A DNA stretch of 64,000 nt from an uncultured Chloroflexia bacterium (GCA_963726245.1 CAVSBT010000015.1:224001-288000); one strand, 5' to 3'. Shown: positions 3,623 through 40,588, numbered from the stretch's first letter. Notes: generated by a model not told the origin, from the sequence alone. Numbers and translations: made by a program.

Positions 3623-3779
3623 TACCGCCACCCGCCGTGACCCATCCTGGAGTGCGCCTGCCGATCCCGTGGTATAGTTGCGTGTCGAAGCCCGTACTTG
3701 GCATGATCATGCGTGCCCTAGCCTCGCTGGAGGCGCGGGCCATGGCCTGCGGGCGGTCTGGCTCGGTGTGACAAGCGGC

Positions 3780-9900: not shown

Positions 9901-10284
9901 AGCGGCATTCACCGTCTCGCCAAAGAGGTCCCGGTCCTCCTCGATGACCTCGCCGGTGTTCAGGCCGATGCGCACCCGCACTTGGTCATCCGCAGGTTGC
10001 CGCAGGTTGTGCCCATAGAGCGCTCGCTGAATGGACGCGGCGCAGGCCACGGCACGCCGCGCCGACCCGAAGGCCACCATGAAGCCGTCACCTATCGACT
10101 TCACCTCGCAGCCGCTGTGCTGCCCCACTTGCTGCCGCACTAGCTCGCGCTGGGCGCGGAGGATCGCGTGGGCGACATCATCGCCCCGGCGTGTCGTCAG
10201 GTCAGTGGAGCCCTCAACGTCGGTGAAGAGGACGGTAACGGTGCCCTCGGGAAGATCCTGAGCCACGGCAGATGATCCCCGCAC
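6978..10284 (-). CDS. Class III adenylate cyclase + STAND (AAA_16) ATPase + TPR-like repeats (several indels, about 8535 and 7540-7080)
   Basis: FTDVEGST, KSIGDGFM, DLFGETVNAAAR; Walker A GEPGVGKT; Walker B LLVLDDLHWAD; TEGNPFFVEE. Helical repeats continue in other frames to IAMYRQIGMPKHVEMAE. Confidence 0.85.
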
Positions 10285-23545: not shown

Positions 23546-25789
23546 GTGATGAGAGGGATGTGGCGACGCCTAGTGGCCCCCTGCAAAGTCCTTAGCCTGA
23601 GGTCATTCCGAGGGCGGTCCATTCTGGCAGGTCTCGCGCTACTCCTGCTATTGGCAGGTGTGGCAGGAGTGGCTCTCTGGCGCGCTCAAAGCGAGCAAAG
23701 CGCACGCCGCTCACTGGAGCGGAGGGCCCTCGCACTCGCCTCTCTCGAGAGTGCCCGCGCTCAGCTCTTTCTTTCGGCCACGTTCACTGCCATTGCAGTA
23801 TTCGCAGACGACCCCGCGCCGCTCGTCGACCAGTATCGGCAAGGTCACATTTCGGTCACCAAGGACATACAGGATGCTCGAGACAAGCTGCTTGCCGCCG
23901 GAGGGCCGGATGAGGCCGCCCCACTGGATGCGGCGGCCGGAGAGGTGGAACAGCTTCTGGGAGAAGCAGACGCAGTCATGGCCTCTTTCCTCACTTCGAG
24001 CAGGGAGGCAAGGTTAGCGACAGCGCAACAAACCCAGGAGAAGCTCTGGCCTCCGGCCGCAGGAGTGATCGCCGAGCTGGAGCAACTGGCGCAGGAACAA
24101 GAGGCCATGCTGTCCGCCGAGCGAGCGGCGGTGGACCGCACCTCAGACTCTACCCTTGGGCTGTTGATCGGGTTTAGCGCGTTTGCCTTCTTGACAGCGT
24201 CTCTGGCACTCCTCACGCTCCTTCGCTCGGTGACACGCCCGCTCGCCGAGCTTCGATCGCGGGCCAGAGAGATCACGTCAGGGAACCTCGAGGCCAGAGT
24301 TAACGTGTCCGGCCCAGAGGAGGTAGCTTCCCTGGCGCACGACTTCAATGAGATGACGGAGACCCTGCTCGACAGGACGGCGCGGCTCCAGAAATCCGAG
24401 CGTCGGTTCCGCGATGTCCTGGAGGTCTCCCGCGACCTGATCTACAAGTTGAACCTGCAAACCCGCACCTACGACTACGTCAGCCCATCCGCTGTCCAGC
24501 TACTGGGCTTCACGCCCGAAGAGATCACTGCGATGGGCGTTGAGGGAGTCAAGGAGAGGTTCCATCCTGACGACAGGAAGAGGCTCCGGCCATCCCCGCG
24601 CGACCTGCCGGATGACGCTCCTGAGGGCCGCATGGCCGCGACAATTGAGTACCGGTTCAAGCGCAGGGACGGAGAGTACCGCTGGTACAGCGATGACCGC
24701 GCCTTCGTACGCGCCGAGGATGGGACGCTGCTGGCTTTGGTGGGGACAGTCCGCGACATCACCAACCGCAAGGCAGCGGAGGATGCCCTGCGCGAGAGCG
24801 AGGAGAAGTTCCGCGTTCTCAGTGCCTCGGCGCCCATCGGCATCTTCTCAACGGACGCCGAGGGCAAGTTCATCTACGCCAACGAGCACTTGCTTGGCAC
24901 ATTTGGGTTGCGGCCCGAAGAACTACTGGGGCGGAGCTGGATCAAGAACATTCATCCGGATGACCGCCAAGCGACAGTCGAGCAGTCGCTGAAGGCAGGG
25001 CGTGAAAAGCGTACGTTCTCCTGGGAATACCGCATCTTGAGGGCAGGGGGAGAAGTACGCTGGGTTCGCACAGTGGCGAGTCCAATACTATCCAGAGACG
25101 GTAGTCCCGCGAGCTATGTGGGCGCCGGTGAGGATATCACTGAGGAAAAGCGGATCGAAGAGGACAAGCAGAGGGCCTTTGAGAACACGGTGATGCTGCT
25201 GGCGGTGGCCGCTGAAGCCCGCGACCCCTACACAGAGAGCCACCTGCTCAGGATCAGAGGCTTCTCAGAGGCGATAGCACTGGAACTGGGACTCAGCCGT
25301 CAGGAGGCTAGAGAAATAGGTCTTGGCTCGCTCCTCCACGATGTCGGCAAGATGCGAGTGCCGGACCCCATCCTTGCCAAGCCGGGGCCGCTCACGGCCG
25401 AGGAGTGGGAGATCATCAAGCAGCACCCCATATGGGGCCAGGACCTGCTGTCGTTGCAGCCCTCGCTGGAGACCGCTCGCCAGATCGCCCGCTGGCACCA
25501 CGAGAACTGGGATGGGACAGGATACCCGGACGGCCTGCGCGGCGAAGAGATACCCATCGGGGCCGCTGTCACCGCCGTCGCCGACTCATTCGACGCTATG
25601 ACGACCGAGCGGCCCTACAAGGACGCCTGGCCGCCAACACGCGCCGTCAAAGAGATCAGGCAGGGCAAAGGCCGGCGATACTCTCCCACGGTCGTGGAAG
25701 CGTTCGACCGCGCGCTGCGGAAGGGTGAGATCGAGAGAGTCGCGATGGCCAGCCCTCCCAGCATCTCAGACCTCGTCAAGGCCGCCTGA
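23546..25789 (+). CDS. Sensor HD-GYP phosphodiesterase (TM-helical sensor-TM-HAMP-PAS-PAS-HD-GYP)
   Basis: HAMP EVASLAHDFNEM; two PAS/PAC domains; EARDPYTESH, LHDVGKM, HHENWDGTGYP, ADSFDAMTTERPY. Confidence 0.92.
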   Translation: MMRGMWRRLVAPCKVLSLRSFRGRSILAGLALLLLLAGVAGVALWRAQSEQSARRSLERRALALASLESARAQLFLSATFTAIAVFADDPAPLVDQYRQGHISVTKDIQDARDKLLAAGGPDEAAPLDAAAGEVEQLLGEADAVMASFLTSSREARLATAQQTQEKLWPPAAGVIAELEQLAQEQEAMLSAERAAVDRTSDSTLGLLIGFSAFAFLTASLALLTLLRSVTRPLAELRSRAREITSGNLEARVNVSGPEEVASLAHDFNEMTETLLDRTARLQKSERRFRDVLEVSRDLIYKLNLQTRTYDYVSPSAVQLLGFTPEEITAMGVEGVKERFHPDDRKRLRPSPRDLPDDAPEGRMAATIEYRFKRRDGEYRWYSDDRAFVRAEDGTLLALVGTVRDITNRKAAEDALRESEEKFRVLSASAPIGIFSTDAEGKFIYANEHLLGTFGLRPEELLGRSWIKNIHPDDRQATVEQSLKAGREKRTFSWEYRILRAGGEVRWVRTVASPILSRDGSPASYVGAGEDITEEKRIEEDKQRAFENTVMLLAVAAEARDPYTESHLLRIRGFSEAIALELGLSRQEAREIGLGSLLHDVGKMRVPDPILAKPGPLTAEEWEIIKQHPIWGQDLLSLQPSLETARQIARWHHENWDGTGYPDGLRGEEIPIGAAVTAVADSFDAMTTERPYKDAWPPTRAVKEIRQGKGRRYSPTVVEAFDRALRKGEIERVAMASPPSISDLVKAA

Positions 25790-25938: not shown

Positions 25939-27168
25939 ATGCGCCACTCGGAGGCGGCCGACCGCGGCGCCGCGCCCAAGCCGCCCGTCGGCGATGTCGA
26001 CTTCAACCTCACCCCCTTCACGGTCGCCTGGGAGATAACCCGCGCCTGCGCCCTCAGGTGCGTCCACTGCCGCGCCGAGGCCCAGCCCAAGCGCGACCCG
26101 CGCGAGCTGACCACCGAGGAGGGCTTTCGCCTCATCGACCAGATCGCCGAGATCGGCGGGCCCATCCTGGTGCTCACCGGCGGCGACCCCATGATGCGGC
26201 GCGACATCTTCGACTTCATCAGGTATGCCGCCAAGGACCGCGGACTGCGGGTGGCCCTCGCGCCCAGCGCCACCGCCCTCGTCACCCGCGAGCGGCTGCG
26301 CAAGGCCCGCGACGCCGGCGTCACCCGCACGCACATCAGCCTGGACGGCGCCACTCAGGAGAGCCACGACGCCTTCCGCCAGACCCCCGGCTCCTTCCAG
26401 CGTACCCTGGAGATCATGGATGACCTGCGCGATCTGGGCATGTCGCTCCAGATCGGCGCCACCGTCAGCCGCCACAACCTGCACGAGCTGGACGCCATCG
26501 CCGAGGTCGCCGCCCGCTACGGCGCCGTGATGCTCAACTTCTTCTTCCTGGTGCCCACCGGCCGCGGCACCGCCGAGGACATGATCTCGCCGGAGGAGCA
26601 TGAGCGCGTCTTCAACTGGATGTATGACCTGGCGAAGACGGCCCCCTTCGACGTGCGCAGCACCGCCGCCCAGCACTACCGGCGCGTGGTCATCCAGCGC
26701 CGGCGCCAGGAGATGGCGGAGTCAGCGGCGCGCGGCGAGGAGTCAGCGGCCGGGCCCGGCGGCAGCATGCACCTCACCGGTGCCGGCTACAGCTTCGCCG
26801 GAGGGCTGGGCCAGTCGACCATGAAGGGCGTCAACGACGGCAACGGCTTCGCCTTCATCAATCACATCGGCGAGGTCTGCCCCAGCGGCTTCCTCCAAGT
26901 CCCCGCCGGCAGCGTCCGCCGCCAGAGCTTCGTCGAGATCTACCGCGACTCGCCGCTGTTCCGGGAGCTGCGCGACTACACCAAGCTCAAGGGCCGCTGC
27001 GGCGTCTGCGACTTCCGTGACGTGTGCGGAGGCTCCCGCGCCCGCGCCTTCGCCGTCACCGGCGACTACTTGGAGACGGAGCCCTACTGCATCTACCTGC
27101 CGCCCGCCTGGAAAGAGGCGGCGGCGGCGCCCTCGGGCGGAGTCACGCCCGTCGGCGGCAGGCGGTAG
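25939..27168 (+). CDS. Radical SAM/SPASM protein, NirJ/AhbD-like heme biosynthesis family
   Basis: WEITRACALRCVHCRA, LTGGDP, C-terminal CGVCDFRDVCGGSRARA...PYC; directly upstream of ahbAB. Confidence 0.82.
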   Translation: MRHSEAADRGAAPKPPVGDVDFNLTPFTVAWEITRACALRCVHCRAEAQPKRDPRELTTEEGFRLIDQIAEIGGPILVLTGGDPMMRRDIFDFIRYAAKDRGLRVALAPSATALVTRERLRKARDAGVTRTHISLDGATQESHDAFRQTPGSFQRTLEIMDDLRDLGMSLQIGATVSRHNLHELDAIAEVAARYGAVMLNFFFLVPTGRGTAEDMISPEEHERVFNWMYDLAKTAPFDVRSTAAQHYRRVVIQRRRQEMAESAARGEESAAGPGGSMHLTGAGYSFAGGLGQSTMKGVNDGNGFAFINHIGEVCPSGFLQVPAGSVRRQSFVEIYRDSPLFRELRDYTKLKGRCGVCDFRDVCGGSRARAFAVTGDYLETEPYCIYLPPAWKEAAAAPSGGVTPVGGRR

Positions 27169-27171
27169 GCC

Positions 27172-27693
27172 GTGATCGACAGCCACACATCGGGCGGCCG
27201 CCGCGGCCGGCATCGCCCCGCGGCCGGTGCTCCCGTCGTGCTCGACCGCCGCGACCGCATCCTCCTCAACCACGCGCAGGGCGGATTCCCCGTCGTCTCG
27301 CGGCCCTTCGCCGCCCTGGGCGAGGCCCTGGGCATGAGCGAGGAGGAGGTGCTGTTCCGGCTGCGACACCTGCTGAAGGCGGGCGCTCTCAGCCGCTTCG
27401 GGCCAATCCTCAATGCCCGCCAGATGGGCGGCGAACGCACCCTGGCCGCCCTCCACGTGCCGCCTGAGCGCTTCGACCAAGTGGCGGCCTTCGTGAGCCG
27501 CCTGCCCACCATCTCCCACAACTACGAGCGCGACCACCACTACAACATGTGGTTCGTCGTCTCCTCGGACGACGAGGCCGAGGTGGAGCGCACTCTCCAG
27601 GCCATCGAGCAGGAGACGGGGCTGCGGCCGCTGAACCTGCCTGCCCTGGAGGAGTACTTCGTGGAGGTCAATCTCCAGTTGCCGGTGGAGTGA
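27172..27693 (+). CDS. ahbA: Siroheme decarboxylase subunit alpha
   Basis: FPVVSRPFAALG, ISHNYERDHHYNMWF. Confidence 0.85.
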   Translation: MIDSHTSGGRRGRHRPAAGAPVVLDRRDRILLNHAQGGFPVVSRPFAALGEALGMSEEEVLFRLRHLLKAGALSRFGPILNARQMGGERTLAALHVPPERFDQVAAFVSRLPTISHNYERDHHYNMWFVVSSDDEAEVERTLQAIEQETGLRPLNLPALEEYFVEVNLQLPVE

Positions 27694-28202
27694 TGGTGCT
27701 GACGGAAGAGGAACGACAGCTCCTTCTCGCCATCCAGGACGGCCTGCCCCTGGTGCCCGAGCCCTACCGGCAGGTGGGCGACCGCCTCGGCATGAGCGAG
27801 GAGCGGGTCATGGAGCTGGTGCGCTCCATGCTGGCGGAGGGCAAGATCAAGCGCCTGGGCGCCGTGCCCAACCACTACGCCCTGGGCATCCGCGCCAACG
27901 GCATGGCCGTCTGGGACGTCCCCGACGACCGCGTGTCGGAGCTAGGGCCGCGCCTGGGCGGGATGCCGGAGGTCACCCACTGCTACCGGCGCCCCCGCCA
28001 CCCGCCCGACTGGCCCTACAACCTCTTCGCCATGGTCCACGGCTACACCAGGGAAGAGGTGCTGGCCACCGTGCAGCGCATCGCCCGCGAGCTGGGCCTC
28101 GACGGCCTGCCGCACGAGGTCCTCTTCAGCACCCGCGTCCTCAAGAAGCAGGGTACACGCGTGCAGGCCCGCCTCGGGCGACCGGACGGGTCTGGCGACT
28201 AG
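27693..28202 (+). CDS. ahbB: Siroheme decarboxylase subunit beta (NirH-like)
   Basis: QDGLPLVPEPY, NGMAVWDV, VTHCYRRPRHPPDWPYNLFAMVH; TGATG coupling. Confidence 0.88.
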   Translation: MVLTEEERQLLLAIQDGLPLVPEPYRQVGDRLGMSEERVMELVRSMLAEGKIKRLGAVPNHYALGIRANGMAVWDVPDDRVSELGPRLGGMPEVTHCYRRPRHPPDWPYNLFAMVHGYTREEVLATVQRIARELGLDGLPHEVLFSTRVLKKQGTRVQARLGRPDGSGD

Positions 28203-28268
28203 CCAATTGCCAGCCCCGCGTCCCATCGCGCCAGCGGCGGCGAAACCGATTTCGGCAGGAGGCGTCAA

Positions 28269-28721
28269 GTGGAAGTCGAATGGTTGATCCTGGCTGACTA
28301 TGCCGAGATTATCGGCGGCAAGCTCTACCTGATGGGCGGAGGCTGGGACAGGTTGACCGTGAATACCGGCTTCCCGTTCACGAAACCGATTGGGCTGGCC
28401 GCCGCGTTCCGGGTGCCGTGGAACGAGACGAATCGACCGCAGAACGTCGAGATCGAGATCCAAACCGACGACGGGGACTCCATCGGCAAGATGGGCGCCC
28501 AGTTCGAAGTGGGACGACCGCCGGGCATGAAGCCCGGGCAGAACCAGCGCTTTCAGCTCGCCGCGAACCTGTCGCTGCCCCTGGCGGGGCCCGGAAGCTA
28601 CGTCGTTATCGCTCGCGTCGAGGGTCAGGAGGCAAGTCGGGTGCCATTCAACGTCACGGCTGGCCCCATGCTTCAGGCTCGACAGCAGCCGGGGAATCCA
28701 GAGCACGGCCCTGGCGAGTAG
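28269..28721 (+). CDS. Conserved hypothetical protein (DUF6941-like)
   Basis: LADYAEIIGGKLYLMGGGWD N-terminus, beta-rich pattern, AGGAGG RBS. Confidence 0.7.
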   Translation: MEVEWLILADYAEIIGGKLYLMGGGWDRLTVNTGFPFTKPIGLAAAFRVPWNETNRPQNVEIEIQTDDGDSIGKMGAQFEVGRPPGMKPGQNQRFQLAANLSLPLAGPGSYVVIARVEGQEASRVPFNVTAGPMLQARQQPGNPEHGPGE

Positions 28722-28767
28722 TGCCTGGCAGGCGAGAACCCTCCTCTCCCGCCTGCAGCGAATCTCG

Positions 28768-28796
28768 TTGACAGCCCCTAGGGCATGACCTACAAT
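28768..28796 (+). promoter_or_regulatory. Sigma-70 promoter of the trehalose/glucan operon
   Basis: TTGACA-N17-TACAAT. Confidence 0.85.
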
Positions 28797-28829
28797 CACA
28801 AGCGACACCAAGGGGTGACGGACGAGTTC

Positions 28830-28968
28830 CGCCTGCCGGCCGGGCCTAGTCGCACCGGCAGCCGGGACGCGAGGGATCGAGCCCAGGAGGGCGAATTCCG
28901 CGCCCGCGCGTGGAGAGGGCAGAGCTTCAGCCCCAACCCCACAGTCAACCTCGCAGGCGCCAGAAGGC
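28830..28968 (+). ncRNA. c-di-AMP (ydaO/yuaA) riboswitch aptamer
   Basis: CGCCT...GCGAGGGA...GGGCGAATTCC...GAGAGGGC-agagCTTCa-GCCCCAACCCCACAGTCAACCTCGCAGGCG-cca-GAAG. Shows ydaO P1/P2 pairings, the 3' ACCC-ACAG-AAC-CG-AGGC signature and a CTTC/GAAG pseudoknot. Confidence 0.82.
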
Positions 28969-28985
28969 ATGCCCAGCGCGACGAT

Positions 28986-29013
28986 AGCCCGGGGCTAGCG
29001 CTTTGGGCTTTCT
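28986..29013 (+). terminator. Terminator hairpin of the c-di-AMP riboswitch platform
   Basis: AGCCCGGGGC-tagc-GCTTTGGGCT followed by TTCT; competing CGATAGC/GCTATCG pairing. Confidence 0.6.
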
Positions 29014-29049
29014 GCTATCGCGCTGCGGCTGCCTCCGGGAGGAGCGGCC

Positions 29050-30387
29050 ATGTACGGAACCCTCGCCATTGCTCCCAGGTCTATCCAGGACCTCGCGTCC
29101 ACCGTCGGCGATGAAGACCTCGCCGAACTCGCCCGCCTGGCCAGGCCCCTGCGCGGCCTCCGCATCCTCAACCTCAGCGTCACAGCCTTCGGCACCGGCG
29201 TGGCTGAACTGCTGAGCGCCTCCGTCCCCCTGATGACGGACCTGGGCCTGGACTGCCGGTGGCAGGTGGTGCGCACCAGCGAGGAGTTCAACCCCGTCAA
29301 CAGGGCCATGTACATGGCCCTGGGCGGCCGCCACGTCGACTGGTCTCTGGAGATGGTCGACGCCTGGCAGCGCTACAACGCCATGAACGCCGGCCTCCTG
29401 ACAGAGGACTTCGACGTGGTGGTGGTCCACGACCCTCAGCCCGCCGGCATCCGCTCCTTTGTCGATGAGCGCCGGCGCGCCGCCACCCGCTGGATCATGC
29501 ACTGTCACCTGGACGTCTCCAGCGCCCAGGAGGATGTCTGGCTCCTCCTCCGCCAGCACATCGAGGCCTACGACGCCATCATCTTCGAGACGGCGAGCTT
29601 CGCCAGGAGCGGCGTGCAGGCGCTCGGCATCGAGGTCATCCGTCCTGCTATCGACCCCGCCGGACCCCGGAACATGGGCCTGTCGCCGGAGTCTGTGGCA
29701 GCCATCGCGGAGCGCTACGGAATCGATACGCGGCGGCCTCTCCTCTGCCAGCTATCGCCCCTGGACGAGAGCTGCGACCCCATGGGGGCCATCGACGTCT
29801 ACGACCTGGCGCGAGAGGCGGTCCCCGACCTCCAGCTCCTGCTGGTGGCGACGGTGGTGCCCGAGGAGCCCCTGGCCCGCGCCAGCTTCGATGAGGTGGC
29901 CGGAAGGGCCATGGACTACAGCGGCGTCTCCGTCCTCTCCAGCCTCAACGAGGTCGGCAACGTGGAGATGAACGCTTTCCAGCGGGCGGCGGACGTGATT
30001 ATCCAGAAAGACCTGCGCCGGGGCTTCGGGCTCTGGATCTCCGATGCCCTCTGGAAGGAAAGGCCGGTGGTGGCTGCGCCGCGAACCGGCCTCCTGGAGC
30101 AGGTCGTCGACGGACAGACCGGATTCCTTGCCGAGAGCACCGAGGAGTTCAGCGGCCGCGTCGTCGCCCTCCTTCAGGACCGCGGCCTGGCGGCGAGACT
30201 GGGCGCCGGCGGCCGCCGTCACGTGCGAGAGAACTTGCTTATCACCCGATACCTCGCCGATTATCTGCGCCTGCTGGGCCGCGCTCACCGGGGCCTCGAG
30301 CTAGCGCCGAAGAGAGAAGAGCAGGATGCTTGGTTCCGTCCCCACCACACCGAAGTCGCTCCAGGACTACGTGCCTGTAATCGGTGA
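29050..30387 (+). CDS. TreT-like GT-B glycosyltransferase paralog with degenerate catalytic motifs
   Basis: VHDPQP, HCHLD, PAIDP, NAFQRAAD and LITRYLADYL are retained; donor-binding motifs are altered. Confidence 0.8.
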   Translation: MYGTLAIAPRSIQDLASTVGDEDLAELARLARPLRGLRILNLSVTAFGTGVAELLSASVPLMTDLGLDCRWQVVRTSEEFNPVNRAMYMALGGRHVDWSLEMVDAWQRYNAMNAGLLTEDFDVVVVHDPQPAGIRSFVDERRRAATRWIMHCHLDVSSAQEDVWLLLRQHIEAYDAIIFETASFARSGVQALGIEVIRPAIDPAGPRNMGLSPESVAAIAERYGIDTRRPLLCQLSPLDESCDPMGAIDVYDLAREAVPDLQLLLVATVVPEEPLARASFDEVAGRAMDYSGVSVLSSLNEVGNVEMNAFQRAADVIIQKDLRRGFGLWISDALWKERPVVAAPRTGLLEQVVDGQTGFLAESTEEFSGRVVALLQDRGLAARLGAGGRRHVRENLLITRYLADYLRLLGRAHRGLELAPKREEQDAWFRPHHTEVAPGLRACNR

Positions 30388-31627
30388 GGAGTTCGTCAGG
30401 GAGATCCGGGACCTGGCGGCTCCTCTCGCGGGCGCCCGCGTGCTCCACATCAACGCCACGGCCTTCGGCGGCGGCGTGGCCGAGCTCCTCGGCTCGCTGG
30501 TCCCCCTCATGAACGACGCCGGCCTGCGCGCCGACTGGCAGGTGATGAAGGGCAGCGACGAGTTCTACCAGGTCACCAAGGCCATGCACAACTCGCTCCA
30601 GGGCATGCTCATCGACTGGACGCCGCACATGCGGGAGGTCTGGCTCCACAACAACCTTCTCAACGCCCAGCTTTTCGACGAAGACTACGACTTCGTGTTG
30701 GTGCATGATCCACAGCCGGCGGCCATACTGAGCTTCATCGCCGAGCTACGGCGGCGCCACCCCGCCGGCCACTGGCTCTGGCGCTGCCACATCGACCTGA
30801 CACATGCCCAAGTTCAGGTGTGGGACACCCTCCGCCCCTACCTGGAGGGCTACGATGCCGCCATCTTTACCCTGGCAGATTATGTAAAGGAAGACCTGGG
30901 TGGCCCGCGGACGTTTGTCGTGCCGCCGGCCATCGACCCGCTGAGTCCGAAGAACGGAGATCTGCCGGAGGACGTGCAGCAGAGCATCCTCGCCCGCTAC
31001 GGCATCGATCCGGCCAAGCCCCTTCTCGTCCAGGTCTCCCGCTTCGACCCCTGGAAGGACCCCCTGGGCGTCATCGAGGTCTACCGCGCCATCAAGCGCG
31101 AGGTGCCCGACCTCCATCTGGTGCTTATAGCGTCTATGGCCCATGATGACCCCGAGGGCTGGGCGTGGTATGAACGCACTGTGCGCCGGGCCGGCGATGA
31201 CTACGACATCCATATCCTCTCCAACCTCAACGGCGTGGGGAACGTGGAGGTCAACGCCTTCCAGCGGGCAGCGGACGTGGTCATCCAGAAATCGGTGAGG
31301 GAGGGCTTCGGGCTGGTCGTGTCAGAGGCTCTCTGGAAGGGCCGGCCGGTGGTCGCCGGCAACGTCGGCGGCATTCCCCTTCAGATAGTGAACGGGAAGA
31401 CCGGCTACCTGGTGAGTACAGTCGAGGAGTGCGCCCAGAAGGTGCTATCCTTACTCAGGGACCCTGAGAAGGCGCACCAGATGGGAAGCGCTGGCCGGGA
31501 GTTCGTGCGGGACAACTTCCTCATCACCCGCTACCTGCGGGATTACCTGCGCATCTTCCGCGAGTTGAGGGGCATCGAGCCACTGCGCAAGGAGGGCGCC
31601 GCCACGGCAGCCCGAGTGCTGGAGTAG
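30326..31627 (+). CDS. treT: Trehalose glycosyltransferring synthase (GT4)
   Basis: GGGVAE, VHDPQP, WRCHID, QVSRFDPWKDP, QKSVREGFGLVVSEALWK. Confidence 0.87.
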   Translation: MLGSVPTTPKSLQDYVPVIGEEFVREIRDLAAPLAGARVLHINATAFGGGVAELLGSLVPLMNDAGLRADWQVMKGSDEFYQVTKAMHNSLQGMLIDWTPHMREVWLHNNLLNAQLFDEDYDFVLVHDPQPAAILSFIAELRRRHPAGHWLWRCHIDLTHAQVQVWDTLRPYLEGYDAAIFTLADYVKEDLGGPRTFVVPPAIDPLSPKNGDLPEDVQQSILARYGIDPAKPLLVQVSRFDPWKDPLGVIEVYRAIKREVPDLHLVLIASMAHDDPEGWAWYERTVRRAGDDYDIHILSNLNGVGNVEVNAFQRAADVVIQKSVREGFGLVVSEALWKGRPVVAGNVGGIPLQIVNGKTGYLVSTVEECAQKVLSLLRDPEKAHQMGSAGREFVRDNFLITRYLRDYLRIFRELRGIEPLRKEGAATAARVLE

Positions 31628-31630
31628 GGG

Positions 31631-32926
31631 GTGGTTTCGGTGAAGAGGGTAATTGGCCTCGTCCTGGCCGGAGGCCAGGGGGACCGGCTCAGCGTCCTCT
31701 CGGAGGAGAGGGCTAAACCGGCCGTTGTCTTCGGCGGCCACTACCGCATCATCGATTTCTCGCTCAGCAACTGCGCCAACTCCGGGATCACCCGGGTAGG
31801 CGTCCTCACCCAGTACCGGCCCCGCTCCCTGAACCAGCACATCGCCATCGGCCGTCCCTGGGACCTGGACCGGCAGGGCGGCGGCGTAACCTTGCTCCAG
31901 CCCTACCTCGGTCGGGAAAGCTCTGATTGGTACCGCGGCACCGCCGACGCCGTTTACCAGAACCTCTACTACATCGAGGAGTCGCGCGCCGACCAGGTCC
32001 TCATCCTGGCCGGCGACCACGTCTACAAGATGAACTACGACAAGCTTATCGCCTTCCACCGAGAGAACGAGGCGGACGTCACCGTCGCCGTTCACAGCAT
32101 GAGTCCCGAGGAGGCCAGCCGCTTCGGCAACGTGGTCCTGGACAAGGCCGACCGCGTGGTGAGCTTCCACGAGAAGCCCCGGGCGCCCGTGTCCAGCCTC
32201 GGCTCCATGGGCATCTACGTCTTCAACAAGGACACCCTTATCGAGCATCTTCTATCCGACGCGCAACGTATCGAAAGCTCCCACGACTTCGGCCGCGACA
32301 TCGTTCCCGGCTTGATGGAGGAGATGCGGGTCTTCGGCTACCGATTCGAGGGCTACTGGCGGGACGTGGGTACCATTGAGGCCTACTACGACGCCAACAT
32401 GGACTTGCTGGAAGACCTGCCCGAGCTGAACCTCTACGACCAGGAGACGCCCATCCAGACCAACGCCACCGGCCTGCCGCCCGCCAAGGTGGGACGCCAC
32501 TCCTACGTCAGCCGCTCACTGGCCAGTGCGGGCTGCATCATCAACGGCCAGGTGGAGCACTCCGTCCTCTCCCCCGGCGTCTACGTGGAGGAGGGCGCGG
32601 TGGTGCGCGATTCCATTGTCTTCAACGGCACCTACATCCAGTCCGGCGCCATCGTCGAGCGCTCCGTTCTAGACAAGGAGGTCCAGATAGGCAACAATTG
32701 CCACGTGGGGTTCGGGGACGACTTCCAGCCCAACGAGGAACGGCCCGACATCGTCAACTGCGGGATCAGCATCATCGGCAAGAGAGTCAAGTTGCCGCCA
32801 TTCCTGCGTGTGGGCCGCAACTGCGTCATCGGGCCGGGCGTGGTCGTCACGGGTGCCGAGGACAACTACCTTCCCAGTGGCACCACCTTGCGGGCGCCGC
32901 ACCGGGAGGGCATTTTCAACGTCTAG
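31631..32926 (+). CDS. glgC: Glucose-1-phosphate adenylyltransferase
   Basis: LAGGQGDRL, RAKPAV, GTADAVYQN, DFGRDI, YWRDVGT. Confidence 0.93.
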   Translation: MVSVKRVIGLVLAGGQGDRLSVLSEERAKPAVVFGGHYRIIDFSLSNCANSGITRVGVLTQYRPRSLNQHIAIGRPWDLDRQGGGVTLLQPYLGRESSDWYRGTADAVYQNLYYIEESRADQVLILAGDHVYKMNYDKLIAFHRENEADVTVAVHSMSPEEASRFGNVVLDKADRVVSFHEKPRAPVSSLGSMGIYVFNKDTLIEHLLSDAQRIESSHDFGRDIVPGLMEEMRVFGYRFEGYWRDVGTIEAYYDANMDLLEDLPELNLYDQETPIQTNATGLPPAKVGRHSYVSRSLASAGCIINGQVEHSVLSPGVYVEEGAVVRDSIVFNGTYIQSGAIVERSVLDKEVQIGNNCHVGFGDDFQPNEERPDIVNCGISIIGKRVKLPPFLRVGRNCVIGPGVVVTGAEDNYLPSGTTLRAPHREGIFNV

Positions 32927-32965
32927 CGACGCTAAAGGCAGCACGGTTGTACGTTAAGTAGAAAG

Positions 32966-34664
32966 GTGATGATGCATAAAGGCGCGTTTACGTTCGTTCT
33001 CCACAGTCACCTCCCCTACTGTCGCCGCGCCGGCCGCTGGCCCCACGGCGAGGAGTGGCTCCACGAGGGAGCCGCAGACACCTACCTGCCCCTCCTGATC
33101 GCCCTTCACGACCTGGCCGACGAGGGCTGCCCCTACCGTCTCACCATAGGCCTCACACCCGTCCTCTGCGAGCAACTGGCCGACGCCCACGTGCTCGAGA
33201 ACCTGGAGATGTACCTCCGGGAGCGCCTGGAGCGGGCGCAGTGGCACGCCGGACATCTGGACCAGCAGGGTGACCTGGCCCGCTCCGAACTGGCCCGCTT
33301 CTACGCGGCACGCTACGCCTTCCTTCTCGACACCTTTATCAACCGCTTCGGGCGCCAGATAGTGGAACCCTTCCATCGCTTGCAGGAGCTGGATCGGATC
33401 GAGATAACGGCCGGCGCCGCCACCCACGGCTACCTGCCCCTGCATGGAGCGGGACTCTGCCATCCATGCCCAGGTCGCTGTAGGCGTGCAAAGCTATAGG
33501 CGACATTTCGGCAAGAGTCCCAGCTCCTTCTGGCTACCGGAGTGCGCCTATCGCCCCACCTATGCCACCGAGTTCGGGCGCGGTTATGTAAAGCCAGGCC
33601 TCCACGAGTTCCTCGCCAGGCAGGGGCTCCTCTGCTTCTTCGCCGAAACACATGCCATCGAGGGCGGCCTACCCGTAGGCAAGGCCATCGGCGACGCCAT
33701 GGGCCCCTACGGCGACATCCCCCGCCGCTATCTCGTGCCCATGGGTCAGTACCCGGAACCCACTTTCAAGACCACCTACCTGCCCTACTGGGTCTCCGAC
33801 CCGCGGGTGGCTGCCATAGGGCGCAACAACCGCACCGGCCTCCAGGTCTGGTCCGCCGAGCACGGCTACCCCGGTGACTTTCACTACCGCGAATTCCACA
33901 AGAAGGACGGCGAATCCGGCCTCCACTACTGGAAGGTGAGCGGGGCGAAGGTCGACCTTGGGTACAAAGAGCTGTACAACCCGGCACGGGCTCAGGAGCG
34001 TATGCACGACCACGCCCGCCACTTCGCCACGCTTGTCGAGGACCTGGTGCGCGAATTCCACGCCGGAAGCGGCGTGTTCGGCATCGTCTCCGCCGCCTAC
34101 GACACGGAGCTCTTCGGCCACTGGTGGTTTGAGGGGGTCGACTGGCTAAGGGAAGTGCTGCGCATCCTCTCTCGAAGCGAGGACGTGGAGTTGACCACCG
34201 CCTCGCGACATCTGCGGCAGCACCCCCCCGAGGACGTGCTCGCTCTGCCTGAGAGCTCCTGGGGGCAGGCCGGTAACCACTTCACTTGGATGAACGCCGA
34301 GACTGAGTGGGTATGGCCCATTATCCGCGAGGCGCAGCTACGCATGGAGAGCCTCGTGGCGCGCCACCCTCAGGCCTCGGGGCCCGTGGCCGGCGCCCTC
34401 AACCAGGCCGGGCGCGAGCTTCTCCTGCTGGAGTCCAGCGATTGGCCGTTCCTGATCACCACCTGGCAGGCACGCGACTACGCCACCAACCGCTTCCAGG
34501 ACCACCTGGAGCGATTCCACCGCCTGGCGGATATGGCGGAGCATCAGCAGGTGGACGAAGGGCTGGTGGCCGAGTACTTCGACCTGGACAACGTATTCCC
34601 GGACCTTGACTACCATGATTTCGCCGATCGAGAGCGTGTGAACGAGCGCGCCTCAGTCACTTAG
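32966..34664 (+). CDS. GH57 1,4-alpha-glucan branching enzyme (indel near 33442)
   Basis: HSHLPY, ATHGYLPL, FWLPECAY, YDTELFGHWWFEG, ESSDWPF. Confidence 0.88.
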
Positions 34665-34705
34665 AGGGGGGAAGGCCCCTCCGCGAGCGCGAAGGAACCA
34701 CAGGC

Positions 34706-36022
34706 ATGTCAGTAATCTATTGGGCGCCCCTCCTGCACTACTATCAGCCGCCCCTCCAGATCTACGAGGTGCTGGCCAAGGTAGTGAACGAGTCGTACCG
34801 GCCGCTGCTGGAGGTGCTGGAGGAGAACCCTCACGCCAAACTCACCGTCAACATCAATGCTGTCCTGACCGAGCTCCTCTGGGAGCACGGCTTCCAAGAC
34901 GTCGTTGAGCGGCTGAAGGTTCTGGCTCAACGAGACCAGATCGAGTTCACGGGGTCCGCCAAGTACCACGCCATCTTGCCACTGATCCCGCAGTACGAGA
35001 TGCGGCGGCAGATCCGGCGTAATCACCTCACCAATCGCTACTTCTTCGGCGACCTCTATGATCCGCAGGGCTTCTTCCCGCCCGAGATGTGCTACAGCCC
35101 GCAAGTGCTGGAGCCTGTGCTGGATGGCGGTCACCGCTGGCTCATCGTAAGCGGCGTGGCCTGCCCGGTGAGCTGGCCGATGAACGTCATCCATCAGATC
35201 GGCTTGGACGGTGACGTCCTGCCCGTGCTCTTCCGCGACGACATCCTCAGCAACAAGATCAGCTTCCAAGGCATCGACGGCCAGGGCTTCGTCGAACACC
35301 TGCGACAGCTCAAGGCGCCCGCCGGCAAGGACTGTTACGTGGTGACGGCGATGGACGCCGAGACCTTCGGCCACCACATTGAGAACTGGGACCGCCTCTT
35401 CCTGGCCGAGGCCTACGAATCTATTCTGCCCGGGAGCGGCGCCTACGAAGAGGTCCAGGAGGCCCAGCCGCTGGCTGCCGGCCACCGCCGCCTGGTCGCC
35501 ATGCCCCAGGAGCCCTCCCTGGGAGAGGTGCGCATCGTCACCATCAGCGAGCTTCTGGGCCTCTTCCCCACCGGCCAGAAGATTCAGCCCTACCTCTCTT
35601 CCTGGAGCACCACCACCGACGACCTGAAGGCCGGCAACTACTACCCGCTGTGGAAGGACCCGGCCAACAACCTCCACCGCCTCCAATGGGGACACACTGA
35701 GATCGCCCTGAGTCTGGTGCGGAAAGCGGGGGAGGTAGCCGACAACGAGGCCAGCCAGCGACACGCCCAGATCGCGCGCGGTCTCCTGGACCCGGCTCTC
35801 CATAGCTGCCAGTACTGGTGGGCGAGCCAGCGCCCCCACTGGGACGTCAACATGATTAACCGCGGCCTGGGCCAGCAGGAGGAGGTCATCCTCAATGCCT
35901 TCCGGGCCATCAATCTTAGCGGCGTCGAGGAGGCGGTGAAGCGGGAGGCCTACTATCACGTGGTAGCCGCTCGCGACACCTGCAGCAAGATCCGCGACCA
36001 GCTATTCTGGGACAAGATCTGA
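34706..36022 (+). CDS. GH57 family glycoside hydrolase
   Basis: HYYQPP, HAILPL, FFPPEM, AMDAETFGHH, HSCQYWW. Confidence 0.82.
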   Translation: MSVIYWAPLLHYYQPPLQIYEVLAKVVNESYRPLLEVLEENPHAKLTVNINAVLTELLWEHGFQDVVERLKVLAQRDQIEFTGSAKYHAILPLIPQYEMRRQIRRNHLTNRYFFGDLYDPQGFFPPEMCYSPQVLEPVLDGGHRWLIVSGVACPVSWPMNVIHQIGLDGDVLPVLFRDDILSNKISFQGIDGQGFVEHLRQLKAPAGKDCYVVTAMDAETFGHHIENWDRLFLAEAYESILPGSGAYEEVQEAQPLAAGHRRLVAMPQEPSLGEVRIVTISELLGLFPTGQKIQPYLSSWSTTTDDLKAGNYYPLWKDPANNLHRLQWGHTEIALSLVRKAGEVADNEASQRHAQIARGLLDPALHSCQYWWASQRPHWDVNMINRGLGQQEEVILNAFRAINLSGVEEAVKREAYYHVVAARDTCSKIRDQLFWDKI

Positions 36023-36037
36023 GGCTGTCCTGAGCCT

Positions 36038-38308
36038 ATGGGCCAGATCAAGCTCGGCCTCGCCATTCACAACCACCAGCCGGTCGGCAACTACCCCTTC
36101 GTCTTCGAGCAGGTCTACCACGACGCCTACCTCCCATTCTTGGAGGCCCTGGAGCGTCACCCGAAGGTGCGGGTATCTCTGCACAATAGCGGCTGCCTGC
36201 TAGACTGGCTCCTGCCCAATCGACCGGAGTACGTCGAGCGACTGGCCGCCCTCTGCGCCCGCGGCCAAGTGGAGGTGATGACCGGGGGCTATTACGAGCC
36301 CATCCTGCCCATGATCCCGGAGAGCGACAAGCTCGGGCAGATCGGCAAGCTCTCCCAGACGGTAGAGCGGCTCTTCGGACAGAAGCCTACCGGCTTGTGG
36401 CTGACAGAGCGCGTCTGGGAGCCGCACCTGCCGGCGCCTCTGGCCCGCGCCGGCGTTCGCTGGACGCTGGTGGACGACAGCCACTTTCTGCGGCTGGGCA
36501 TGGCCGAGTCCGATCTGGACGGCTACTTCATCACCGAGGAAGATGGCCTGCCCCTGAAGGTCTACCCAGGCAGCCAGTTCCTGCGCTACGCCATCCCCTG
36601 GAAGACTGTCGAAGACGTCATCGAGTACCTGCGGGGCCAGGCGTCGGACGAGCCCGGACGCATCATCATCCTTGGCGACGACGGCGAGAAGTTCGGAGGC
36701 TGGCCCACTACCTACGCCCACTGCTGGGAGAAGGGCTGGATGGATGACTTCTTCACGGCCTTAGAAGAGAACGCGGACTGGCTAAAGATGATAACGCTCG
36801 GGGAGCACGCCGAGCGCTACCCAGCCCGCGGCATCGTCTACCTGCCCACTGCCTCCTACTCGGAGATGATGGAGTGGGCCATGCCCACTACGGCTCGCGT
36901 CGAGTTCGCCCGCTTGACACGGGAGGCCAAGGATTCCGACCGCGAAGACCTGCTGCGCTACCTCCAATCCGGCTTCTGGCGCTACTTCCTGGTCAAGTAC
37001 CCGGAGGCCAACGCCATGCACAAGCGTATGCTGCGAGTGCATCGAAAAGTGGACGAGGCTGCGACACGAGGCGATGCCTCGGCGGCCCGCGATGCGCTCT
37101 GGAGCGGACAGTGCAACTGCCCCTACTGGCACGGCGTCTTCGGGGGCCTCTACCTGCGCCACATCCGCTGGGCCACGCACCGCCAGCTCATCGCTGCCGA
37201 GCGGCAGGCCGACCATCTCCTTCACCGCAGGGCCGGCTGGCTGGTGGCCCGCCGCGAGGACCTGGACTATGACGGCCAGCCGGAGGTGCTGGTTCAGACC
37301 GCGGACCTCTCCCTCTGCTTTCACCCCCACCTGGGCGGCATGCTGTCGGAGTGGGACGTGCGCCGCCACGACTGGAACCTCCTCAACGTCCTCAGTCGCC
37401 GCCGTGAGGCCTACCACGAACCGCTGTTGGAGGCGGAGGCCGACTCCGACCCCCGCCAGCTCGCTGGCGACGACTCCGGAGCCGTGCGCTCCATCCACGA
37501 CGAGCTGGCGGCCAAAGAGCCCGGCCTGGCGGCGATCCTGGCCTTCGATCCGCATCGTCGCGGCGGCCTCCAGGAGCAGCTCCTGCCGCCGGAGGCCTCC
37601 TTACCCGACTACGCTTCCGGCGCCTTCGCGCGGGACGGCGACTTTCTTCTCGGCCCGTGGCAGGCTTCGGTGGAGCGGACGAATGAGGGCGCAACGGTGC
37701 GACTGGACCGTCGCGGTCACCTCACATTGGGAGAGCAGTCGTTCCCGCTGCACCTGGAGAAGGCGCTGACGGTGCAGCGTCGCGGTCAGCAGGTGGCGGT
37801 GCGCTACCGGGTGAAGAATGAGGGTGGGGAGGTGTCTTTCCTCCTCGCCAGCGAGTGGAACGTGAACACCATTCAGGCCCCGGACGGCGACGACCGCATC
37901 CAGACGCTTCGCGTGAAGGCCAAGAAGCGCTCCCTGGCAGAGAGCGGCCAGGCGGAGAAAGTTCGGCGGGCGGCGGTGGTCGGTAGCGCCGGCGTGGCTC
38001 TCACCGCCGAACTGGCTCAGCCCTGCACCCTGTGGCACTTCCCGGTGGAGAGCGTCTCCAACTCGGAAGGAGGACTGGAGAGGGTGAACCAGGGTACCTG
38101 CCTGGCCTTCCTCTTCCCGCTCCACCTGAAGCCGGGCGAGAGCCGCGAGGTCTCCTTCACCTGGACAATCGAGGAGGAGAAGGAAGTGACGAAGAGGGCC
38201 GCTTCTCGGCGGGCAGGCACGGCGGCCCGCCCTTCGACCCTTCGACGAGCTCGGGGTGCGACAAGCCCAAGGCGGCCAGCACCCCGAGGGGCTGGCAGAG
38301 GGCGATAG
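36038..38308 (+). CDS. GH57 4-alpha-glucanotransferase / alpha-amylase
   Basis: HNHQPVGN, LWLTERVWEP, DDGEKFGGWP, QCNCPYWHGVFGG, SNSEGGLE. Confidence 0.9.
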   Translation: MGQIKLGLAIHNHQPVGNYPFVFEQVYHDAYLPFLEALERHPKVRVSLHNSGCLLDWLLPNRPEYVERLAALCARGQVEVMTGGYYEPILPMIPESDKLGQIGKLSQTVERLFGQKPTGLWLTERVWEPHLPAPLARAGVRWTLVDDSHFLRLGMAESDLDGYFITEEDGLPLKVYPGSQFLRYAIPWKTVEDVIEYLRGQASDEPGRIIILGDDGEKFGGWPTTYAHCWEKGWMDDFFTALEENADWLKMITLGEHAERYPARGIVYLPTASYSEMMEWAMPTTARVEFARLTREAKDSDREDLLRYLQSGFWRYFLVKYPEANAMHKRMLRVHRKVDEAATRGDASAARDALWSGQCNCPYWHGVFGGLYLRHIRWATHRQLIAAERQADHLLHRRAGWLVARREDLDYDGQPEVLVQTADLSLCFHPHLGGMLSEWDVRRHDWNLLNVLSRRREAYHEPLLEAEADSDPRQLAGDDSGAVRSIHDELAAKEPGLAAILAFDPHRRGGLQEQLLPPEASLPDYASGAFARDGDFLLGPWQASVERTNEGATVRLDRRGHLTLGEQSFPLHLEKALTVQRRGQQVAVRYRVKNEGGEVSFLLASEWNVNTIQAPDGDDRIQTLRVKAKKRSLAESGQAEKVRRAAVVGSAGVALTAELAQPCTLWHFPVESVSNSEGGLERVNQGTCLAFLFPLHLKPGESREVSFTWTIEEEKEVTKRAASRRAGTAARPSTLRRARGATSPRRPAPRGAGRGR

Positions 38309-39145: not shown

Positions 39146-40588
39146 GTGCGCGACCTCGTGATGCGAACTCTGGACACCGCCCGTCAACAGGGCGCCGCCT
39201 ACGCCGACGTGCGGGTCGTGCGCCTGACCAGCGAGTCTATCACCGTCCGCAACCAGAACGTGGAGGGGCTCACGGCCGACGAAACCCTGGGATTCGGCGT
39301 CCGCGTCATCGTCGACGGCTACTGGGGCTTTGCCAGCAGCTATAAGCTGACACTGGAGGAGGCCGACCGCGTCGCTGCCCAAGCTGTGCGCATCGCCCGC
39401 GCCTCGGCCCGGGTGCGTGGCCCCAAGGCGAACATCGGCCCGCCGGAGGTCCACCGCGACAGCTATCGCACTCCCTTCCAGAAGGACCCCTTCGCCGTCC
39501 CCCTGGACGACAAGATCGCCCTTCTCGTCCGCGCCAACGAAGCCATGATGAAGGTGCAGGGCGTGGTGATGGCGGAGTCCAACGTCTACTGCCAGCGCGA
39601 GGAGAAGACCTTCGGGAGCAGCGAGGGCAGCTTCATCGAGCAGGCGCTGGTCGAGACGGGCTGCGGCATCGAGGCCACGGCGGTCGACGAAGGGGAGGTG
39701 CAGCACCGCTCCTACCCCAACAGCGTCGGCCGTCACCAGGGCACCGAGGGCTGGGAGTTCGTGGAGCGCTACGACCTGGCGGGGAACGCCGGCCGCGTCG
39801 CCGAGGAGGCGGCAGCCCTTCTCCGCGCCAAGCCCTGCCCGTCGGGAGTCACCACCATCATCCTCGACGGCAGTCAGGTGGCGCTCCAGATCCACGAGAG
39901 CTGCGGCCACGCCATCGAGCTGGACCGGGTGCTGGGGACGGAGGCTGCCTTCGCCGGCACCAGCTTCCTGACCACCGACAAGCTGGGCAGCTTCCGCTAC
40001 GGCTCCGAAGCCGTCAACATCACCGCCGACGCTACGATTCCTGGCGGACTGGGCACCTTCGGCTACGACGACGAAGGGGTGCCCGCTCAGTCTACCCCTG
40101 TCGTGCGCGACGGCCTCTTCCTGGGCTATCTCACCTCCCGCGAGACGGCGGCCGCCCTGGGGCAGCGCAGCAACGGCGCCATGCGCGCCTCTGGGTGGAA
40201 CCGCATCCCTCTCATCCGCATGACGAACGTCAATTTGGATCCAGGACGCTGGACTCTCGGGGATCTCATCGCTGACACGGACGAAGGTCTGTACATGGAG
40301 ACCAACCGTAGCTGGAGCATCGACGACCGGCGCCTCAACTTCCAGTTCGGCACCGAGATCGCCCGCGAGATCAAGCACGGCAAGCTGGGCGACCTGGTCA
40401 AGAACGCCACCTATACAGGCATGACGCCGCGGTTCTGGGGTAGCTGCGACGCCGTCTGCAACCGAAACCACTGGGTGGTCTGGGGAACACCGAACTGCGG
40501 CAAAGGACAACCGGAGCAGGTGGCCCACACCGGCCACGGCGCCGCCCCCGCCCGTTTCCGCAACGTCCAGATCGGCCTCATGAAATAA
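39146..40588 (+). CDS. tldD: TldD family metalloprotease
   Basis: IHESCGHAIELDR (HExxxH), DDEGVP, RMTNV, CGKGQP. Confidence 0.9.
   Translation: MRDLVMRTLDTARQQGAAYADVRVVRLTSESITVRNQNVEGLTADETLGFGVRVIVDGYWGFASSYKLTLEEADRVAAQAVRIARASARVRGPKANIGPPEVHRDSYRTPFQKDPFAVPLDDKIALLVRANEAMMKVQGVVMAESNVYCQREEKTFGSSEGSFIEQALVETGCGIEATAVDEGEVQHRSYPNSVGRHQGTEGWEFVERYDLAGNAGRVAEEAAALLRAKPCPSGVTTIILDGSQVALQIHESCGHAIELDRVLGTEAAFAGTSFLTTDKLGSFRYGSEAVNITADATIPGGLGTFGYDDEGVPAQSTPVVRDGLFLGYLTSRETAAALGQRSNGAMRASGWNRIPLIRMTNVNLDPGRWTLGDLIADTDEGLYMETNRSWSIDDRRLNFQFGTEIAREIKHGKLGDLVKNATYTGMTPRFWGSCDAVCNRNHWVVWGTPNCGKGQPEQVAHTGHGAAPARFRNVQIGLMK

Follow-up and report, generated by a model that had tools for sequence, protein, structure and literature searches.

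A divergent homologue of the c-di-AMP riboswitch aptamer precedes a trehalose and alpha-glucan operon in an uncultured Chloroflexia bacterium

The DNA analysed here is a stretch of 64,000 nucleotides (nt) from an uncultured Chloroflexia bacterium (GCA_963726245.1 CAVSBT010000015.1:224001-288000), hereafter the window, in which positions are counted from the first letter. Within it, a promoter and a leader RNA precede genes for a TreT-like protein (gene 1), TreT, GlgC and three members of GH57, an arrangement that a preliminary description had interpreted as a trehalose/alpha-glucan operon gated by a ydaO-type riboswitch (RF00379) for cyclic di-adenosine monophosphate (c-di-AMP). We find that the leader is a homologue of the RF00379 aptamer and not a canonical member of the family. 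We judge the chances to be about even that it descends from a c-di-AMP riboswitch whose canonical two-site sensing has been weakened or lost while the structured leader still acts on expression. The leader region is laid out as follows.

28768-28796, plus strand: sigma-70-type promoter, TTGACA-17-TACAAT, agreeing with the consensus at 11/12 positions
28830-28971, plus strand: divergent, sub-threshold leader RNA derived from a ydaO/c-di-AMP aptamer
28834-28860, plus strand: 5' hairpin with a variable apical part, containing GCCUAGUC
28869-28874 / 28949-28954: long-range helix of the leader, with a closing helix to about 28953-28959
About 28897-28914 and about 28917-28933: two hairpins of the leader
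28986-29009, plus strand: terminator-like hairpin of 10 pairs (6 G-C) with a loop of 4, followed by the T-poor tail TTCTGCTATC to 29019
28974-28987 / 29015-29025: outer stem enclosing that hairpin in the minimum-free-energy fold
29037-29052, plus strand: Shine-Dalgarno sequence GGGAGGAG and ATG of gene 1, read from the sequence

At the Rfam gathering thresholds, the 64-kb window contains two tRNAs and one c-di-GMP-I-GGC aptamer, and RF00379 has no match anywhere in it. A permissive scan of 28650-29150 recovers RF00379 at 28844-28958 on the plus strand, where it scores 27.3 bits (the gathering score being 38) with an E value of 2e-4; the match spans model positions 12-118 of 134 and is the sole notable family match in the leader. 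The covariance search that the preliminary description had named as its own potential refutation thus came out divided: the ydaO-type aptamer it claimed exists as an RF00379-like element, but below the threshold. The two deviations from canonical examples that it had quoted, CCCCACAGUCAAC and AGAGGG, are both present in the sequence. Chance resemblance was considered and rejected, given the Rfam E value, an E value of 2.1e-4 in 587 kb with a model built from the lineage itself, and the true family members found in orthologous leaders. Predicted fold energies are uninformative on structure: that of the leader is no better than those of shuffles (z = -1.43), and the z-scores overall were -1.43, -0.83, -1.30, -1.31 and 0.05.

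The homologues of gene 1 are 417-residue proteins, which JGI names trehalose synthase and NCBI names glycosyltransferase of Dehalococcoidia/Chloroflexota metagenome-assembled genomes (MAGs); the 20 closest, 78-98% identical, come from metagenome contigs. One genome scan with an alignment of 21 such homologues gave 58 related loci (L numbers below), 57 of them titled as Chloroflexota, Chloroflexi, Chloroflexia or Dehalococcoidia MAGs. Synteny is conserved: tblastn with the window proteins found the order TreT-like, TreT, GlgC in most loci, and GlgC often has behind it either a single unbroken frame for the GH57 branching enzyme plus another GH57 gene, or TldD. The survey of RF00379 upstream of treT/glgC that had been proposed was rewarding, as a full-length aptamer scoring 59.8-100 bits occurs in 18 of the 58 loci at the equivalent place, directly upstream of the orthologous TreT-like/TreT gene (10/13, 1/17, 6/16 and 1/12 loci in the four batches, at the gathering score). 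One locus, L052, carries two copies, and three others (L024, L043 and L056) have almost no upstream DNA, so that presence could not be judged there. The window leader aligns with the full members at the same operon position. The 19 canonical aptamers have 42 invariant columns in common, and their RNAalifold structure comprises 29 pairs, with compensatory changes in 14.

Because full RF00379 aptamers stand upstream in 18/58 loci, and 8 of these 18 have a terminator that passes the hairpin-plus-T-tract rule, c-di-AMP control of the TreT-like/TreT operon appears to be real in this lineage. The canonical aptamers in related MAGs are likewise indirect evidence that the lineage uses c-di-AMP. No diadenylate cyclase (DAC) domain was found among the 46 open reading frames (ORFs) of the window scanned with Pfam, a scan that left aside nine short or doubtful ORFs from a list of 52. 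The window's closest relatives, L001, L002 and L003 (gene 1 proteins 87%, 74% and 63% identical), have no RF00379 match at the gathering score. No relics were found in the other RF00379-negative loci, where 9-13 mismatches are seen with a 26-position probe of the 3' core, mostly at shuffle level; the values of four loci (0.025 in L051, 0.055 in L018 and L034, 0.095 in L050) are not beyond chance over about 35 loci, and the lineage model matches L009 (11 bits) and L015 (8.3 bits) without significance.

The lineage model, R1, is a covariance model built from the 19 canonical aptamers, which score 95.2-186.8 bits on it. The window scores 25.4 bits (28833-28971; E 2.1e-4 in 587 kb), and with filters off the window, L001 and L002 score 25.4, 6.8 (3' sub-domain only, not significant) and 1.9 bits. 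Nine of the 42 lineage-invariant columns are altered in the window and 12 in each of L001 and L002; in a leave-one-out control, 15 of the 19 canonical copies had no mismatch at invariant columns and the others had 1, 2, 2 and 6. The changed positions are also upper-case in the Rfam consensus line. The junction nucleotides compared were GCCGAAUC, GGGGGAaCC, GGGGUGAAU, UAGGG and CCCGAACCCG.CAGCUAACC, and with 9/42 invariant columns different the window does not carry the conserved junction nucleotides of RF00379 in full. Motif by motif, the replacements are these.

Canonical GCCGAAUC, window GCCUAGUC
Canonical GGGGGAACC, window GAGGGAUCG
Canonical GGGGUGAAU, window AGGGCGAAU
Canonical UAGGG, window GAGGG
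Canonical CCCGAACCCG, window CCCCAACCCC
Canonical CAGCUAACC, window CAGUCAACC

It is the Rfam alignment that pairs the window stretch GCCUAGUC with the conserved GCCGAAUC junction. Non-standard R1 pairs in the window number 5/29, three in the 5' hairpin, one in an internal helix and one a short pair. On the 3' core probe, canonical copies have 0-3 mismatches, the window 4, L001 8, and L002 and L003 9 each. The window and L001 have seven derived core states in common, and substitutions common to the window and the independently assembled L001 cannot be sequence errors. When the pocket residues listed in a review (PMC7288161) are placed on the window by motif order alone, three of the changed positions would fall inside mapped pockets: the G of GCCGA, the U of GGUGAAU and the U of UAGGG.

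A quick maximum-likelihood tree was computed from 54 TreT-like rows, without L057, which was too short, and without L043, L055, L056 and L058. It places the window as (L003,(L002,(window,L001))), with Shimodaira-Hasegawa-like approximate likelihood ratio support of 85, 99 and 93. On this tree the presence of RF00379 needs at least nine state changes, and the riboswitch therefore is dispensable in the lineage. It is present in the deepest rows, L052 and L033, and an ancestral riboswitch with many losses would be the simplest reading, although the tree itself cannot separate gain from loss. Within the window's clade the decay looks graded, to judge by the R1 scores (25.4, 6.8 and 1.9 bits for the window, L001 and L002) and by the core-probe mismatches (4, 8, 9 and 9, including L003).

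How strongly the leader is constrained was gauged against the four-fold-degenerate sites of three adjacent genes, which are identical at 485/644 positions (75.3%) between the window and L001 and at 304/568 (53.5%) between the window and L002. From 28869 to 28971, the window and L001 differ at 7/104 positions, as against 159/644 four-fold sites (Fisher p = 1.1e-5). Since this difference is so far below the 25% at four-fold sites, the RNA appears to be still under selection, with purifying selection on the 3' two-thirds of the aptamer in the window's lineage. Polarised by reading against the canonical consensus, 5/7 of the differences are derived in L001: GAAU to UAAU, AACC to GGCC, one additional C, and a G-to-A substitution that disrupts one pair of a hairpin. 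The adjoining stretch 28839-28868 differs at 11/30 positions, and its changes sit in the apical part of the hairpin, apart from one A-to-G change that preserves pairing; the stem is predicted in the window and L001 alike, with z-scores that are not significant. The canonical 5' junction (GCCGAAUC) thus looks as if it is not maintained in the window's clade, where it would lie in an apparently fast-evolving hairpin loop. Identity with L002 is 58% in the aptamer region (close to neutral), 86% in the promoter, 74% in the hairpin region and 89% in the Shine-Dalgarno region.

The elements that flank the aptamer are better preserved. The near-consensus promoter claimed earlier is borne out by its 11/12 agreement and by shuffled sequence, in which sites of such quality occur at a mean of 0.0; its -35 hexamer is kept in L001 and L002, and its region is identical at 25/29 positions with each. 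The Shine-Dalgarno region matches each of the two at 17/19 positions, and the start of gene 1, MYGTLA..., is kept across orthologues. A terminator had also been claimed, and here the 10-bp hairpin at 28986-29009 is present but the T-tract falls short, with 4 T in 8 bases where the terminator rule requires 5, and a terminator scan of 28500-29300 returned none. A homologue of the hairpin can be aligned in L001, L002, L003, L005, L011 and L014; the hairpin region differs at 9/60 positions between the window and L001, and the outer stem has two both-sided changes relative to L001 by our reading of the alignments. The canonical TreT-linked leaders that pass the hairpin-plus-T-tract rule include L019, L020, L022, L025 and L049 (6 T in 8), and by analogy a hairpin and T-tract behind the aptamer would fit the known OFF-switch mode.

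Taken together, these observations suggest the following scenario. The ancestral arrangement of the lineage was probably a transcriptional OFF switch, in which the c-di-AMP-bound aptamer would let the hairpin and T-tract terminate transcription and keep the TreT-like/TreT/GlgC(/GH57) genes off. A fall in c-di-AMP, a signal whose general meaning we take from the literature, would permit read-through, upon which GlgC would make ADP-glucose, TreT would make trehalose and the GH57 enzymes would handle alpha-glucan in the canonical relatives, some of which probably keep this OFF arrangement. In the window's clade the aptamer core seems to have undergone remodelling: of its four conserved junction motifs, the 5' one (GCCGAAUC) would now lie in a variable hairpin loop, and each of the other three is substituted at otherwise invariant positions. 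Because the core motifs have changed and the T-tract is weak, canonical two-site sensing of c-di-AMP has probably been weakened or lost. Because most helices seem to survive and the 3' two-thirds appear to be under purifying selection, the RNA is unlikely to be junk, and the leader most likely is still structured and acts as an attenuator that sets read-through at the 28986-29009 hairpin. The earlier claim of c-di-AMP gating therefore transfers well to the 18/58 relatives with a canonical riboswitch upstream and poorly to the window's own copy, which is below the family score and has 9/42 invariant positions broken.

Several observations nevertheless weigh against a loss of sensing. In the window 24/29 R1 pairs are standard, although a single sequence cannot reveal covariation, and 33/42 invariant positions are retained; one canonical copy, the second of L052, has 6 mismatches at lineage-invariant columns and yet scores 91.8 bits in Rfam. 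By the motif-order mapping onto the review's list (PMC7288161), most pocket nucleotides of the 3' half are kept, and one c-di-AMP site could still work. The promoter, hairpin and Shine-Dalgarno sequence are conserved with L001 and L002, a working sensor would show the same purifying selection on 28869-28971, and the claim of a non-conserved core rests on few sequences, the close relatives L001 and L002. Given the scattered single-base indels in the window, sequence errors might account for single-base gaps in the aptamer, and the non-significant fold energies (z = -1.43, -1.31 and 0.05) of this G+C-rich RNA speak neither for nor against any structure. These points leave room for a working c-di-AMP OFF switch with a non-consensus pocket, whose binding might be weaker or confined to one site and which would promote termination at 28986-29009; we regard this as possible but rather doubtful. 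Such a switch would sit well with the canonical riboswitches in orthologous leaders, the retained pairs and invariant positions, the strong constraint on 28869-28971, the conserved flanking elements and, by our own polarisation, the ancestral states that the window's lineage retains where L001 changed. It would have to operate, however, with 27.3 bits where the gathering score is 38 and at least 70 bits below every lineage member on R1, with all four pseudo-symmetric core motifs altered (GCCGAAUC lost, GGGGGAACC to GAGGGAUCG, GGGGUGAAU to AGGGCGAAU, CCCGAACCCG.CAGCUAACC to CCCCAACCCC.CAGUCAACC), with a weak T-tract, and beside a sister, L001, that has still more core changes (GAAU to UAAU, AACC to GGCC and the extra C). 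The earlier guess that the affinity or specificity of the window aptamer is altered is a reasonable one.

A change of specificity might go as far as a variant class with another ligand (for example an adenine nucleotide, or a dinucleotide that is linear or of another cyclic kind) that still gates the operon, which we consider very unlikely. We know of no variant class of ydaO that has been described, though no search was aimed at one. The seven derived core states common to the window and L001 and the purifying selection on the 3' part would favour such a class, and GEMM-Ib, structurally like GEMM-I and recognising c-AMP-GMP exclusively (PMC5888326), provides a precedent, but the variant core occurs in two sequences only, core positions that used to be invariant have changed again in L001, one hairpin of which contains a mismatch, and L002 and L003 yield no common variant consensus. 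It is similarly unlikely, though conceivable, that the window and L001 form a new class of ydaO fold, with a hairpin in place of one pseudo-symmetric junction and with the rest of the pocket retuned, that gates trehalose/alpha-glucan synthesis; its ligand may be a single c-di-AMP at a different affinity or another adenine-containing ligand, and its hosts may be soil Dehalococcoidia-like Chloroflexota. At the other extreme, the riboswitch might have been lost in the clade's ancestor, leaving a non-functional, drifting relic and an operon expressed constitutively from its strong promoter, an account that strikes us as quite improbable. Repeated riboswitch loss in the lineage (at least nine state changes), model scores that drop steadily from the window to L001 to L002, the weak T-tract, and an aptamer region 58% identical to that of L002, near the 54% at four-fold sites, would all suit a relic. 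Most helices look intact, however, and 28869-28971 differs between the window and L001 by 7% as against 25% at four-fold sites (p = 1.1e-5), a degree of conservation that a drifting RNA should not show.

The six genes behind the leader are as listed in the preliminary description, with the qualification that gene 1 and the GH57 branching enzyme contain single-base frameshifts. All of the following lie on the plus strand.

29050-30387: TreT-like GT4 paralogue, gene 1; PF21269 121 bits, NF041139 292 bits (below its cut-off)
30326-31627: treT, trehalose glycosyltransferring synthase; PF21269 170 bits
31631-32926: glgC, glucose-1-phosphate adenylyltransferase; NF003670 484.9 bits (cut-off 470), TIGR02091 442.6 bits (cut-off 424.9)
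32966-34664: GH57 1,4-alpha-glucan branching enzyme, in two frames, 32966-33499 and 33444-34664
34706-36022: GH57 family protein, PF03065 103 bits; specificity not assigned
36038-38308: GH57 protein of alpha-amylase / 4-alpha-glucanotransferase type; PF03065, PF09094, PF09095
38318-39127: alpha/beta hydrolase, after a gap of 9 nt
39146-40588: TldD-family metalloprotease, after a gap of 18 nt

The treT product matches Pyrococcus horikoshii TreT (PDB 2x6q) with 443 bits over residues 10-416, and its motifs SRFDPWK and REGFGL..SEA, which we take to be nucleotide-sugar donor-binding motifs of GT4, are invariant in 18/18 orthologues, as expected of a TreT; against the NCBIfam Thermococcales equivalog it scores 478.7, below the cut-off of 775. 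Gene 1 belongs to the TreT fold family (PF21269; 283 bits to PDB 6zj4) and lacks the TreT donor motifs, having SPLDESC and RRGFGL..SDA in their place. Among its orthologues, the Arg-to-Pro change and the Lys loss are found in 21/21, the loss of the first Glu in 21/21 and that of the second in 20/21. Its product may be a non-catalytic partner or the user of another donor. Gene 1 always stands directly before treT. A predicted complex of TreT with the TreT-like protein reaches a median ipSAE (an interface score) of 0.37, with 0.00 for the best control, and at least 89% of contacts recur between runs, with a partner pLDDT (per-residue model confidence) of at least 87. The mark that it passes was reached by 116/157 solved complexes and 2/215 mismatched pairs, and scores of up to 0.60 came from just 18/157 solved complexes and from both passing mismatches. 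The prediction thus faintly hints at a complex, and its pass may reflect likeness, since solved TreT structures exist.

The two branching-enzyme ORFs match GH57 model positions 1-152 and 152-532 and form one continuous frame in relatives; one extra nucleotide near 33444, as compared with L001 and L002, splits the gene, and another near 30283 gives gene 1 an aberrant 28-residue C-terminal tail overlapping treT. A further single-base frameshift, near 14490-14500, divides the gene of a GlcD-like FAD oxidase on the minus strand, and the three frameshifts could be either real pseudogenes or assembly indel errors. Operon decay as their cause was considered and found unsupported: the unrelated GlcD-like gene is frameshifted too, and scattered indels, possibly assembly errors, are as likely.

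The operon had been taken to end at 38308, which is not established: the hydrolase and TldD genes follow closely, and no terminator-like site was found between 38308 and 40588. The only such site on the plus strand lies at 38089-38105, inside the last GH57 gene (3 sites, against 6.0 expected by chance). Both downstream genes are possibly co-transcribed with the operon. TldD stands behind TreT genes in at least 14 related loci by our own count from the tblastn table, with or without GlgC and GH57 (for example L006, L007, L010, L016, L030 and L039-L042), which suggests a conserved neighbourhood.

Other genes and signalling elements of the window may be recorded here. Just upstream of the operon (25939-28721, plus strand) are genes of alternative haem synthesis, an AhbD-like radical SAM protein and an AhbB siroheme decarboxylase subunit; AhbB also comes next upstream in many of the related loci, and both the window and L001 have a DUF6941 gene interposed between it and the leader. 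The c-di-GMP-I-GGC variant aptamer (RF03167) lies at 2396-2496 on the minus strand and scores 67 bits where the gathering score is 59; it precedes, by 97 nt, a gene of the sigma-70 family at 1544-2299 on the same strand. Nucleotide signalling is also represented by a HAMP-PAS-HD (HD_5) protein (23546-25789, plus strand), and an adenylate/guanylate cyclase is fused to an AAA_16 ATPase domain (8269-10284, minus strand). In L052, the second canonical aptamer (91.8 bits; L052:3021-3219) stands directly before a GH57 and DUF3536 gene (3318-4757) and carries GGGCUGCUU where the lineage has GGGGUGAAU; there, an alpha-glucan enzyme by itself seems to be under c-di-AMP control.

Genes adjoining ydaO RNAs are recorded as serving cell-wall metabolism and osmoprotectant synthesis and transport (PMC7288161), with K+ and amino-acid transporters, cell-wall enzymes and osmotic-shock proteins among the targets (PMC7266159, PMC10117811). 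A c-di-AMP OFF switch acts in vitro on the osmolyte-synthesis gene ablA (PMC9337991), and in the kdp leader of Bacillus thuringiensis c-di-AMP binding promotes termination (PMC6488665). With osmoprotectant-synthesis targets in print (PMC7288161, PMC9337991), the phrase "unusual target class" used for this operon was an overstatement. No link of RF00379 to TreT turned up among the matches listed in the literature searched, which did not extend to the gene lists in the supplements of Nelson 2013 and Block 2010; "c-di-AMP riboswitch" and "trehalose" co-occurred only incidentally in the one paper examined, a search on relic riboswitches or riboswitch decay gave no relevant title among the matches listed, and one on DAC proteins in Chloroflexi yielded nothing of use. 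A TreT/GlgC/GH57 target of a c-di-AMP riboswitch thus seems undescribed within this literature.

If the canonical aptamers of the lineage work as their family does, ADP-glucose-dependent trehalose synthesis (TreT-like/TreT/GlgC) would be placed in the c-di-AMP riboswitch regulon of uncultured Chloroflexota, along with a GH57 alpha-glucan enzyme in one genome, and an osmotic second messenger would be linked directly to de novo compatible-solute and storage-glucan metabolism. With the riboswitch apparently intact, remodelled, fading and gone at one orthologous locus, the lineage may offer a natural series on riboswitch loss or retuning. It also holds a caution for annotation, in that an aptamer convincing by eye can fail its family's defining features.

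Among known systems, the closest is the RF00379 c-di-AMP (ydaO/yuaA) riboswitch itself, as in the Bacillus kimA/ktrAB and B. thuringiensis kdpFABC leaders. The window leader is of the same descent, alignable over model positions 12-118, with predicted long-range helices, two 3' hairpins and a downstream hairpin, and its orthologues include full members; the known mode of the family is that c-di-AMP binding promotes intrinsic termination (PMC6488665, PMC7288161). Unlike these examples, the window leader fails the gathering score, has 9/42 invariant positions changed, appears not to maintain the 5' GCCGAAUC junction and has a weak T-tract, and its target is a TreT/GlgC/GH57 operon in place of K+/osmolyte transport or cell-wall genes. 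In regulatory logic, the tandem Na+ / c-di-AMP riboswitch before ablA in Dehalobacter sp. CF is a likely parallel, since it combines an OFF switch and terminator on compatible-solute synthesis (PMC9337991), the arrangement that we suspect for the canonical relatives. The pathway there is that of beta-lysine as opposed to trehalose and alpha-glucan, the phylum and the tandem architecture differ, and the Dehalobacter aptamer is canonical and was tested in vitro (PMC9337991), whereas the window aptamer is neither. Finally, the pair of GEMM-Ib (c-AMP-GMP) and GEMM-I (c-di-GMP) illustrates how a fold can be kept while the ligand differs (PMC5888326), which is what a change of specificity in the window's leader would require; in contrast to the GEMM variants, which have many representatives and are validated, the changes seen here occur in two sequences only, and these two differ in their core.

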